The notes below the pieces were generated by a model. It did no database searches, was not told where the DNA came from, and saw only the letters and a program-made list of their open reading frames with translations. A stretch of DNA of 4,835 nucleotides from a virus (lineage: Duplodnaviria; Heunggongvirae; Uroviricota; Caudoviricetes): the IMG/VR virus record IMGVR_UViG_2671180283_000016; one strand, written 5' to 3'. Both the position numbers and the translations under genes were made by a program. Shown here in pieces: positions 2,986-4,835 of the stretch (the first letter of the stretch is position 1; each line of letters opens with the position of its first letter).

Positions 2986-3729
2986 ATGACACAGACTGAA
3001 TCAGCGATTCTGGCGCATGCCCGGCGGTGTGCGCCTGCGGAGTCGTGCGGCTTCGTGATAAGCACGCCGGAGGGGGAGCGGTATATCCCTTGTGTGAATA
3101 TTTCCGCAGAGCCGGAGGCGTATTTTCGTATCGCACCGGAAGACTGGCTGCGGGCAGAGATGCAGGGGGAGATTGTGGCACTGGTCCACAGTCATCCCGG
3201 TGGGCTGCCCTGGCTGAGCGAGGCTGACCGGCGGCTGCAGATAAAAAGTGCACTGTCCTGGTGGCTGGTCTGCCGGGGGGAAATTCACAAATTCCGCTGC
3301 GTGCCGCACCTGACCGGGCGTCGTTTTGAGCACGGGGTGACGGACTGTTACACCCTGTTCCGGGATGCCTACCATCTGGCGGGGATAACGCTGCCGGATT
3401 TTGTGCGTGAGGATGACTGGTGGCGCAACGGCCAGAACCTGTACCTGGACAACCTGGCGGAAAACGGCTTTTGCCGGGTGTCTCCGTCCTCTGCACAGGC
3501 AGGCGATATCCTGCTGTGCTGCTTTGGCGCATCGGTGCCGAATCATGCCGCCATTTACTGTGGCAACGGTGAACTGCTTCACCATCTGCCTGAACAACTG
3601 AGTAAACGGGAGAGGTATTCTGAAAAATGGCAACGACGAACGCATTCTGTCTGGCGTCACCGCCACTGGTCCGCATCTGCCTTCACGGGGATTTACAACG
3701 ATTTGGCAGCCGCCTCAGCCTGTATGTGA
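2986..3729 (+). CDS. K: Tail tip assembly protein K (lambda gpK-like), 247 aa, JAMM/MPN + NlpC/P60 two-domain protein
   Basis: ATG at 2986 lies 10 nt after the L stop and gives an N-terminus MTQTESAILAHARR matching lambda K-region translation as recalled. JAMM motif H68-S-H70-x7-S78-x2-D81 (HSHPGGLPWLSEAD, nt 3187-3228). NlpC/P60-like catalytic Cys121 (GVTDCYTLF) and downstream His (PNHAAIYCG). The track's 334-aa version starts at a TTG (2725) inside L in another frame and is rejected. Confidence 0.86.
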   Translation: MTQTESAILAHARRCAPAESCGFVISTPEGERYIPCVNISAEPEAYFRIAPEDWLRAEMQGEIVALVHSHPGGLPWLSEADRRLQIKSALSWWLVCRGEIHKFRCVPHLTGRRFEHGVTDCYTLFRDAYHLAGITLPDFVREDDWWRNGQNLYLDNLAENGFCRVSPSSAQAGDILLCCFGASVPNHAAIYCGNGELLHHLPEQLSKRERYSEKWQRRTHSVWRHRHWSASAFTGIYNDLAAASACM

Positions 3730-4307
3730 ACACGGCAGCGGAAGCCATCCGGGCGCTGTCGTTACAGGTGCCCGGATTCCGCCGTCAGATGAACGAAGGC
3801 TGGTACCAGATACGTATTGCCGGTGATGACACGGCACCGGAGGCGGTGTACGCCCGTCTTCACGAACAGCTGGGTGAGGGAACGGTCATCCACATTGTGC
3901 CGCGACTGGCCGGGGCCGGAAAGGGTGGACTGCAGATTGTGCTGGGGGCGGCAGCCATCGTGGGCTCTTTCTTCACGGCCGGGGCATCAATGGCGTTATG
4001 GGGTACAGCCCTGAGTGCCGGCGGTTTTTCTGCCACCACGATGCTGTTTTCACTTGGAGCCAGCATGATTCTGGGTGGTGTGGCCCAGATGCTGGCCCCG
4101 AAGGCAAAAACACCGGATTACCGCGCAACGGATAACGGCAGACAGAACACGTATTTTTCGTCACTGGACAACATGATTGCCCAGGGTAACCCGATGCCGG
4201 TGCCTTACGGGGAAATGCTGGTTGGCTCCCGCCGTATATCCCAGGACATCAGTACCCGTGATGAAGGCGGGGGCGGAAAGGTCGTGGTTATCGGGCGGCA
4301 GGGGTAA
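3627..4307 (+). CDS. I: Tail assembly protein I (lambda gpI-like), 226 aa
   Basis: ATG at 3627 with GGGAGAGG about 11 nt upstream. It overlaps the 3' end of K by 103 nt in a different frame, the same arrangement as lambda K/I. Size is close to lambda gpI (223 aa). The C-terminal half has Gly/Ala-rich hydrophobic stretches. Stop TAA at 4305-4307. Confidence 0.9.
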   Translation: MATTNAFCLASPPLVRICLHGDLQRFGSRLSLYVNTAAEAIRALSLQVPGFRRQMNEGWYQIRIAGDDTAPEAVYARLHEQLGEGTVIHIVPRLAGAGKGGLQIVLGAAAIVGSFFTAGASMALWGTALSAGGFSATTMLFSLGASMILGGVAQMLAPKAKTPDYRATDNGRQNTYFSSLDNMIAQGNPMPVPYGEMLVGSRRISQDISTRDEGGGGKVVVIGRQG

Positions 4308-4347
4308 AAAGAATAAAAAAATCCCGCAGAGTTGCGGAACTGCGGGA
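4306..4347 (-). terminator. Rho-independent terminator oriented for minus-strand transcription
   Basis: An 8-bp GC-rich stem (4322-4329 TCCCGCAG with 4340-4347 CTGCGGGA) and 10-nt loop. On the minus strand it is followed immediately by TTTTTTTATTCTTTTT (complement of 4306-4321). On the plus strand there is no T-tract after the hairpin, so it is directional. Confidence 0.65.
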
Positions 4348-4406
4348 GCGTTACGAAGATTAAGTGTAAGGAATTATTCTTATGTCACGACAAAAAACAC
4401 TAACGC
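4314..4406 (-). ncRNA. Candidate small RNA (~90 nt) bounded by the minus-strand promoter and intrinsic terminator; unnamed
   Basis: Inferred only from the promoter at 4413-4440 and terminator at 4306-4347 on the same strand. No ATG-initiated ORF in the predicted transcript. The segment is AT-rich (my hand count about 36% GC for 4348-4478, against visibly GC-richer flanking genes). Ends are approximate. Confidence 0.3.
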
Positions 4407-4412
4407 AGCGAA

Positions 4413-4440
4413 ATTATACGCGCCACAGTCAGTTTGTGAA
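4413..4440 (-). promoter_or_regulatory. Candidate sigma70-type promoter on the minus strand
   Basis: Minus-strand -10 is a perfect TATAAT (complement of 4413-4418 ATTATA). A -35-like TTCACA (complement of 4435-4440, 5/6 match to TTGACA) lies 16 bp upstream. Predicted start is near 4406, pointing towards the minus-strand terminator at 4306-4347. Confidence 0.45.
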
Positions 4441-4477
4441 AATGTGAAGATATTCAGAAGTTTTATTCAGTGATGAT

Positions 4478-4510
4478 ACAGGCATCCTCAGGGATGCCTG
4501 TTGTTTTTGT
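4478..4510 (+). terminator. Rho-independent terminator-like hairpin on the plus strand, 32 bp upstream of the J start
   Basis: A 10-bp perfect stem (4478-4487 ACAGGCATCC with 4492-4501 GGATGCCTGT) and 4-nt loop TCAG, followed by TGTTTTTGTG (4502-4510). There is no matching T-tract on the other strand. Confidence 0.55.
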
Positions 4511-4531
4511 GCGTAACAGTTATCACAGTAA

Positions 4532-4539
4532 AGGGTGAG
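4532..4539 (+). promoter_or_regulatory. Shine-Dalgarno-like site for J
   Basis: AGGGTGAG lies 3-10 nt upstream of the ATG at 4543. Confidence 0.5.
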
Positions 4540-4542
4540 ACA

Positions 4543-4835
4543 ATGGGCAAAGGTGGCGGCAAGGCGCACACACCGCGCGAGGCGAAGGACAATCTCAAAT
4601 CCACGCAGATGATGAGTGTGATTGATGCGATTGGTGAGGGACCGATAGAAGGCCCGGTGAAGGGGCTGCAGAGTATCCTGGTGAACAAAACCCCGCTGAC
4701 GGACACGGACGGCAATCCTGTGATACACGGTGTGACCGCGGTCTGGCGCGCCGGGGAGCAGGAGCAGACACCACCGGAAGGCTTTGAGTCCTCCGGAGCT
4801 GAAACCGGACTGGGCGTGGAAGTGACGAAGGCAAA
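4543..4835 (+). CDS. J: Central tail fibre / host specificity protein J (lambda gpJ-like), N-terminal 97 codons; 3' end lies outside the window
   Basis: ATG at 4543 preceded by AGGGTGAG (4532-4539). Translation MGKGGGKAHTPREAKDNLKSTQMMSVIDAIGEGPIEGPV...AGEQEQTPPEGFESSG closely matches the lambda gpJ N-terminus as recalled. The frame stays open to the window end. Not in the ORF track because there is no stop in the window. Confidence 0.92.
   Translation, partial: MGKGGGKAHTPREAKDNLKSTQMMSVIDAIGEGPIEGPVKGLQSILVNKTPLTDTDGNPVIHGVTAVWRAGEQEQTPPEGFESSGAETGLGVEVTKA

Follow-up and report, generated by a model that had tools for sequence, protein, structure and literature searches.

The stretch of DNA analysed here, in the following called the window, comprises 4,835 nucleotides of a virus of the Caudoviricetes (IMG/VR record IMGVR_UViG_2671180283_000016). 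According to sequence comparison, the spacer between its tail genes I and J (4308-4542) contains, on the strand opposite to the tail genes, an allele of the PasB/EcOnc22-24 family of small RNAs (sRNAs), a kind of element which, together with its locus, has already been described experimentally (2014, 2021) and surveyed (2026). Taking the whole analysis into account, it is likely that this spacer encodes an sRNA that is expressed in the lysogen, depends on Hfq and pairs with its targets in trans. The position, the strand, the promoter and the extent of the transcript were computed from sequence features and homology, while its expression, Hfq dependence, seed, targets and regulatory input are inferred.

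Homology to PasB and EcOnc22-24

PasB was identified as one of five “pathogenicity-associated” sRNAs by Hfq-based ligation and sequencing of interacting RNAs (RIL-seq) in the enteropathogenic Escherichia coli (EPEC) strain O127:H6 E2348/69 (Pearl Mizrahi et al. 2021, PMC8550237). The same study assigned PasB (E2348CN_0006) to the minus strand of prophage PP6 (NC_011601.1, 1466343..1466261, 83 nt) and verified it by northern blotting using the probe AATCCCGCAGTGATCGCGGAGCT. This probe covers the hairpin which is homologous to positions 4322..4347 of the window. In the E2348/69 genome the I-J gap extends between 1466255, the end of the tail assembly gene I, and 1466496, the start of gpJ (PasB 4762-4844, end of I 4756 and start of J 4997 in the extracted locus L002); PasB is thus located in the I-J gap, at the same site and on the same strand as the unit in the window.

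The I-J spacers of the window and of E2348/69 align end to end. In the promoter region, which includes the upstream dyad box described below, 59 of the 62 positions (95%) are identical. The identity of the RNA encoded in the window with PasB amounts to 75% if the predicted transcript is compared and to 70% if the comparison is confined to the published 83 nt; the longest exact word common to both is 15 nt. Both RNAs belong to the same length class (83 nt in PasB, predicted 78-92 nt in the window) and agree in the stem of the terminator with its U7 tail as well as in the succession of an A-R-N run, a conserved core and the terminator. They differ in the terminator loop and in the 5' half, which reads GUCGUGACAUAAGAAUAAUU in the window and GCCCGAGUAACAAAAACAAC in PasB. 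For PasB, log2 fold changes of -6.8 and -2.4 in the delta-hfq mutant under two growth conditions as well as 37 RIL-seq interactions have been reported, and the tail genes flanking it were almost silent in the lysogen (baseMean 5-15; PMC8550237).

Further I-J spacers were collected from IMG/VR prophage contigs using protein I as query and the terminator arm as DNA pattern. Together with the E. coli loci this resulted in about 60 distinct homologous alleles. What distinguishes the allele groups is mainly the 5' half of the transcript, and minor allele types exist beside the four groups given here:

Group A (PasB): GCCCGAGUAACAAAAACAACUCCUUMAC
Group B (window; also Stx2c and Stx1a phages of O157): GUCGUGAYAUAAGAAUAAUUCCUUACA
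Group C (EcOnc22): GAUGCCUGAAAAAUAACUCCAUAAC
Group D: CGGGCCAAUAAAAACAAAACUCCCUGUG

From the groups A, C, D and E, leaving out that of the window, 17 alleles were taken to build a covariance model (CM R1). It matched the window on the minus strand at 4406..4315 over its full length (model positions 1-96 of 96) with 71.3 bits and an E-value of 3.5e-13, the next-best hit in the window having an E-value of 0.013. PasB and three loci of the enterohaemorrhagic E. coli (EHEC) strain O157:H7 Sakai scored 95-104 bits, and nothing was found by the model in lambda or in the relatives with short gaps from Enterobacter, Rahnella and Pantoea. The hits at the Sakai loci are:

L095, 1337-1427
L097, 568-658
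L098, 618-708

EcOnc22, EcOnc23 and EcOnc24 were described as peaks obtained by UV cross-linking and cDNA analysis (CRAC) with Hfq in the Sakai prophages Sp15 (Stx1), Sp14 and Sp11, respectively (Tree et al. 2014, PMC4104026 Table S2). EcOnc22 appeared as an RNA of approximately 85 nt on the northern blot and was destabilised in the delta-hfq mutant (PMC4104026). All three peaks fall within I-J gaps, are antisense to the tail genes and have an equal offset from J. Their published coordinates refer to an older Sakai sequence, and a shift between the genome versions of +137 to +146 bp was derived from the positions at which Rfam detects AsxR and AgvB in the present Sakai sequence, at 1.27 and 1.94 Mb. 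The shifted peak 2902851-2902920 is situated within the hit of the covariance model at 2902836-2902926, in the cassette adjoining I; with this shift EcOnc22, EcOnc23 and EcOnc24 fall on the cassette in Sp15, Sp14 and Sp11. They share with the window the location in lambdoid I-J gaps antisense to the tail genes, the model scoring 95.5 bits there compared with 71.3 bits in the window. They differ from the window allele in belonging to another allele group (GAUGCCUGAAAAAUAACUCCAUAAC...), in an RNA identity of approximately 76% and in the promoter hexamers, both the -35 and the -10 (AATAAT) being weaker.

EcOnc22-24 thus probably represent the cassette of the PasB family, an equivalence which is not stated in PMC4104026, PMC8550237 or the survey of 2026; the PasB row in Table S6 of PMC8550237 lists no EHEC homologue. 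The suggestion of the earlier note on this DNA that the I-J spacer carries a moron-type non-coding RNA on the minus strand is supported by the hit of the covariance model and by the detection of PasB and EcOnc22 at the same position and on the same strand. Rfam (release 15) gave no match in 4308-4542 even at E-values up to 10 and none at the PasB and EcOnc22 loci at the gathering thresholds, the family not being part of this database. Nothing is annotated in the I-J gap in the matching RefSeq and GenBank records, and a blank stretch thereby gains a name and an expected phenotype.

According to a megablast search the gap of the window is matched in 1383 of 5426 complete E. coli genomes, in up to eight places per genome, and in 149 phage records, most of which are Stx1a-, Stx2a- and Stx2c-converting phages. 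The survey of 2026 (Zhu, Shabalina & Storz, bioRxiv 10.64898/2026.05.13.724894) employed blastn with a word size of 28 and covers only PasB variants differing by a few nucleotides. Since the longest word shared with PasB is 15 nt, the survey probably did not count the window allele; judging from its method, the group B alleles as such are probably too diverged from PasB for this search and were missed. Uniting EcOnc22-24, PasB and the window allele as one family would allow such surveys to count them properly. For the window itself the finding is an ordinary one, as the element is of a known kind and its copy here has diverged.

A search of genome contigs with protein I yielded 12 loci; several consist of near-identical E. 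coli prophage sequence assigned to unrelated taxa and were left out of the evidence. The loci L083, L085, L087 and L091 concern contigs of this kind. Short contigs assigned to Streptomyces flavalbus, Parendozoicomonas haliclonae and a metagenome-assembled genome (MAG) of the Clostridiales carry an E. coli-type I gene with 91-98% identity and in one case also the sRNA cassette, and a contig of a Geobacteraceae MAG carries an Enterobacter-type I gene. These contigs look like contamination of the assemblies or samples.

Predicted promoter, upstream box and transcript

The following features of the sRNA gene were predicted in the spacer, all of them on the minus strand:

4443..4458, minus: imperfect dyad TCTGA-N6-TCACA with the flanks AAAA and TTT, candidate CRP-like activator site (family conservation)
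4435..4440, minus: -35-like hexamer TTCACA (consensus scan; conserved in the allele groups A and B only)
4413..4418, minus: -10 hexamer TATAAT (consensus promoter scan)
4315..4406, minus: predicted sRNA, group B allele of the PasB/EcOnc22 family (hit of the covariance model, alignment to the PasB locus, fold)
4373..4381, minus: AAG-AAU-AAU, three A-R-N triplets, candidate motif for the distal face of Hfq (kept in every allele group)
4355..4373, minus: UUCCUUACACUUAAUCUUC, most conserved stretch of the sRNA body, candidate seed (conserved columns; unpaired in the consensus fold)
4322..4347, minus: terminator hairpin with an 8-bp stem and a 10-nt loop, followed by U7 at 4321-4315 (terminator scan, fold)

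Both promoter hexamers had been pointed out by the earlier note and are present at these positions. The arrangement TTCACA-16 nt-TATAAT (4440..4413) scores 11 of 12 in the consensus scan and is the sole promoter-like place in the whole window; matches of this quality are rare in shuffled sequence: dinucleotide shuffling of the gap gave them 24 times in 5000, and shuffling of the whole window 3 times in 300. In the comparison with related I-J spacers, which the note had proposed as a check, the -10 position is retained in most allele groups as TATAAT, AATAAT, TATCAT or CATAAT, with weaker versions (GATAAA, GTGCAT) in rarer alleles and the best one of the family in the window allele, whereas the -35 hexamer TTCACA is restricted to the groups A and B, and the -35 and spacer sequences of the remaining groups are unrelated.

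Of the 194 family instances, 193 carry the upstream dyad, invariably at a distance of 24 nt upstream of the -10 hexamer, although the intervening sequence varies between the allele groups. Such a conserved control box was not found described in PMC4104026, PMC8550237 or the 2026 survey. In the window the dyad reads TCTGA-ATATCT-TCACA (4458-4443) and agrees with the CRP half-sites TGTGA-N6-TCACA in 9 of 10 core positions. The spacing of 24 nt places its centre at approximately -44.5 for a start at 4406 and differs from the class II CRP position of -41.5, which corresponds to a proximal half-site approximately 21 nt away from the -10 hexamer. Because of this deviation from the canonical position, control by CRP is regarded as a lead and not as a finding. 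cAMP-CRP is known to repress Spf. In EPEC, PasB was more abundant in the non-activating growth condition and Spf approximately fivefold higher in the activating condition (PMC8550237), which is consistent with an activation of PasB by CRP. It is hypothesised that the promoter of the window allele may be under CRP control.

The predicted transcript starts at approximately 4406, as deduced from the -10 hexamer, and ends with the last residue of U7 at 4315; for PasB, the 5' end deduced from coverage corresponds to approximately 4392 of the window, and the predicted length of the non-coding transcript amounts to 78-92 nt. The 92-nt interval 4406..4315 contains no ATG and only GTG and TTG frames of two to three codons, in agreement with the transcript of about 90 nt lacking an ATG-initiated open reading frame (ORF) which had been proposed before. 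The intrinsic terminator reported in the earlier note, with its 8-bp GC stem at 4322-4347, was recovered by the terminator scan and forms the dominant structure of the window RNA in the ViennaRNA fold. Its stem arms UCCCGCAG (4347-4340) and CUGCGGGA (4329-4322) are followed on the minus strand by U7 (4321-4315) and AUUCUUUUU, the U tract continuing into the stop codon of gene I. The rho-independent terminator CCCGCAG/CUGCGGG with U7 is identical to that of PasB in stem and tail.

All allele groups keep an A-R-N run, a pyrimidine-rich core and the terminator. The A-R-N runs, which follow the definition of the motif for the Hfq distal face given in PMC4104026, occur in every group despite their differing sequence (AACAAAAACAAC, AAAAAUAAC, AAUAAAAACAAAAC). 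The core is conserved in the columns YCC...RUURAUCUUC, its version in the window being UUCCUUACACUUAAUCUUC at 4373-4355. Since the RNAalifold consensus fold pairs the terminator only, the body of the sRNA is unstructured, and the combination of a terminator with an unstructured body is typical of Hfq-dependent sRNAs. A long-range stem between the 5' and the 3' part (GCGUUA/UAACGC) in the fold of the window RNA is neither kept in other groups nor present in the consensus fold and was rejected.

The spacer might instead be read as coding on the plus strand, where a 21-codon ORF (4382-4447, MSRQKTLTQRNYTRHSQFVKM) could be translated from the late mRNA to give a small protein. The sequence AAGGA, 9 nt upstream of this ORF, resembles a Shine-Dalgarno (SD) sequence, but it is at the same time the complement of the conserved UCCUU of the sRNA. 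Furthermore, the ATG is replaced by ATA in u00, the commonest group B allele with 39 instances, and the frame is lost in the spacers of the PasB and EcOnc22 types. A small protein thus appears extremely unlikely as an explanation of the spacer, and the ORF is probably not a gene.

Alternatively, the window could carry a decaying or silent copy, in which a chance promoter and a bidirectional terminator persist in a recombination-prone spacer as a functionless allele. Lambdoid tail regions are indeed mosaic, the body of the RNA is 25-30% diverged from the verified homologues and some alleles show the weakened -10 hexamers mentioned above. However, the window retains promoter, dyad box, A-R-N run, core and terminator in intact form, and these signals are kept across at least 60 distinct alleles in spite of the turnover of the intervening sequence. 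Taking furthermore into account that the window has the best -10 hexamer of the family and that its allele type is common (39 times as u00, and in the Stx phages of O157), it seems very unlikely that the window allele is a functionless remnant.

Proposed mode of action and the hairpin upstream of J

In the proposed mechanism the cassette would combine a sigma-70 promoter on the minus strand, a CRP-like dyad at a fixed distance upstream of it, a transcription start at approximately 4406 and an intrinsic terminator defining the end at 4315. The sRNA would be produced in the lysogen independently of the late phage transcription, and Hfq would stabilise it via the 3' U tail and the A-R-N run. It may then act in trans, with the unstructured and conserved UUCCUUACACUUAAUCUUC engaging in limited base pairing, probably at the ribosome-binding regions of mRNAs of the host and of the accessory genome.

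Several points weigh against this interpretation. The expression of the window allele is deduced solely from its homologues, and the connection to EcOnc22-24 was made via the inferred coordinate shift and not via a published sequence. Sequence comparison gives the transcript an identity of no more than about 70-75% with PasB and EcOnc22, the 5' half accounting for most of the differences, so that its targets may differ or its function may be lost. For PasB itself no target motif was reported (PMC8550237). Compared with the start predicted from the -10 hexamer, the coverage-based 5' end of PasB is displaced by 15 nt in the downstream direction. Finally, the invariance of the terminator stem was imposed by the DNA search pattern and does not represent independent evidence; as the allele collection was seeded with the stem sequence, covariation in the terminator is uninformative.

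A different function would be that of an anti-sRNA sponge similar to AgvB and AsxR, in which the A-R-N run binds to Hfq at its distal face and the RNA sequesters a core sRNA. AgvB and AsxR (RF02702, RF02703) have a length of 51-60 nt and occupy the moron site downstream of PR' (PMC4104026). They resemble the unit in the window as short, prophage-borne and Hfq-binding RNAs of the lysogen with a variable 5' A-R-N part, a conserved 3' terminator and multiple alleles across prophages. A-R-N repeats in a variable 5' half joined to a conserved 3' half correspond to the architecture described for prophage anti-sRNAs (PMC4104026), and the PasB allele contains the CA-rich sequence ACAAAAACAAC which resembles GcvB target sites. 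However, this CA-rich motif is missing in the window allele, the sole CACAAAAACAAC being located upstream of the promoter at 4501-4512. Moreover, in the part of the RIL-seq table considered here the only partner of PasB belonging to the sRNA class is the intergenic region adjoining pasA and not a core sRNA (PMC8550237). The models RF02702 and RF02703, which do detect AsxR and AgvB in the Sakai control loci, gave no match in the window, and the unit belongs to the tail module and not to the PR' moron site; AgvB was therefore rejected as its identity. A role of the window RNA as a sponge is considered quite improbable. As a side observation, STnc100 (RF02076) adjoins and converges on AsxR and AgvB in the Sakai prophages Sp5 and Sp10 (L096 1123-1328, L099 228-420).

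In addition to the sRNA gene the spacer contains a second element close to J, which was not mentioned in the earlier note and gave the top hit of the terminator scan:

4478-4510, plus: strong intrinsic-terminator-like hairpin with a 10-bp stem, a loop of 4 nt and the tail TGTTTTTGTG

The hairpin (4478-4501) with its tail ends 33 nt before the start of J. Its stem is preserved in the E2348/69 copy via compensatory changes, and a plus-strand hairpin with a T run is likewise found just before J in lambda, with a gap of 60 bp, and in relatives from Enterobacter, Rahnella and Pantoea with gaps of 43-60 bp. On this comparative basis the hairpin is an ancestral element of the I-J region located outside the sRNA; it could be an attenuator, could stabilise the mRNA 3' end or could block stray transcription in the lysogen. 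The I-J region of lambda agrees with the window in the flanking genes and their order and in the hairpin and T run before J but differs in its 60-bp gap, which lacks the sRNA cassette and a match of the covariance model. The simplest history would be the insertion of a cassette of approximately 165 bp (4308 to ~4470) between the stop codon of I and the ancestral hairpin.

The possibility of a plus-strand sRNA ending at the terminator 4478-4510 was rejected, as no plus-strand promoter reaches 9 of 12 and the hairpin is ancestral. On the plus strand the covariance model aligned weakly over its full length at 4420-4508 (18.4 bits, E 0.013), an echo which ends at this hairpin and probably reflects composition together with the effect of a hairpin followed by a U run. 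Read on the minus strand, the A-rich flank of the plus-strand terminator corresponds to the CA-rich CACAAAAACAAC (4501-4512) resembling GcvB target sites. This stretch is conserved in the E2348/69 and O111 copies and is situated upstream of the sRNA promoter, outside the predicted sRNA.

The location within the late operon raises the question of a cis-antisense regulator, which during induction would pair with the late I-J mRNA and cause cleavage by RNase III or a block of ribosome loading, or would interfere by convergent transcription, thereby tuning J relative to I; such a role could co-exist with one in trans. The complementarity to the late mRNA is perfect by construction, every family member keeps its place just upstream of J and the U tract of the terminator abuts the stop codon of I. 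On the other hand, the RNA (4406-4315) does not overlap the SD sequence and start of J (~4532-4545) and ends at least 137 nt before the start of J. The hairpin next to J occurs without the sRNA in lambda and the other relatives, so that a coupling of I and J would not need the sRNA. No support was obtained for the suggestion of the earlier note that the RNA could modulate read-through into J. PasB has many partners in trans, while neither I nor J appears among its partners in the part of the RIL-seq table considered, which refers to the uninduced lysogen with silent tail genes. Regulation of the tail operon in cis is thus considered unlikely.

Long gaps, tandem arrays and the surrounding tail module

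Longer I-J gaps of two kinds were observed. In a variant with gaps of 336-344 bp (L003 1882-2224 and at least 35 other IMG/VR loci) an unrelated module of approximately 170 bp takes the place of the J-proximal part together with the plus-strand hairpin. This module ends in a minus-strand hairpin with a T run (AAACCCCGGTATCAGCAGATACCGGGGTTTTCTTTC) and possibly represents a second minus-strand RNA starting in or near J. Gaps of approximately 900 bp contain three tandem sRNA genes of different allele groups, all of them antisense to the tail genes. Tandem arrays of this family, which were not found described in PMC4104026, PMC8550237 or the survey of 2026, are located at:

L150, 322-1084
L140, 4418-4980
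L145, 1-704

It is conceivable, although rather doubtful, that the I-J spacer of lambdoid prophages serves as a dedicated landing site for diversifying Hfq-dependent sRNA cassettes. These would retain the CRP-like and thus catabolite-responsive box, the A-R-N handle and the terminator while the 5' or seed part is swapped, would accumulate in arrays of up to three and would, in the case of group B, have targets distinct from those of PasB and EcOnc22. If this were true, each prophage would put a different regulon under the same signal. Prophage sRNAs rewire the expression of host and virulence genes in EPEC and EHEC, and the description of a single family with seed variants, a control box and occasional arrays leads to testable hypotheses on its regulation and its allele-specific targets.

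The window as a whole comprises a lambda-type tail module with the 3' part of H followed by M, L, K, I, the gap and the 5' part of J, an order which is likewise annotated in RefSeq for E. coli prophages of 96.8% identity. The genes flanking the gap are:

3627..4307, plus: tail assembly gene I, long form (ORF list, RefSeq annotation of the 96.8%-identical prophages, I/K overlap of lambda)
4543..4835, plus: tail tip gene J, 5' part (sequence, RefSeq annotation of relatives)

The stop codon TAA of gene I occupies 4305-4307, leaving a gap of 235 bp (4308-4542) with a GC content of 0.37-0.42 compared with 0.55-0.67 in the flanks. H and M as well as M and L abut or overlap, L and K are separated by 10 nt and K overlaps with I. 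The description of a 235-bp AT-rich gap in an operon whose other junctions abut or overlap, as given in the earlier note, was confirmed by the GC scan and the ORF list apart from the 10 nt between L and K, and the I-J gap of lambda, given there as about 60 bp, was measured as 60 bp. The sRNA cassette accounts for this odd gap within the otherwise tightly packed tail operon.

Two further ORFs crossing the cassette, of 98 aa on the plus strand (4177-4473) and of 99 aa on the minus strand (4429-4728), overlap with I or J out of frame and were treated as spurious. The long form of I shares 103 nt (3627-3729) with the 3' end of K, as annotated in lambda, whereas the RefSeq prophage annotations place the start of I at a GTG overlapping the stop codon of K (3726).

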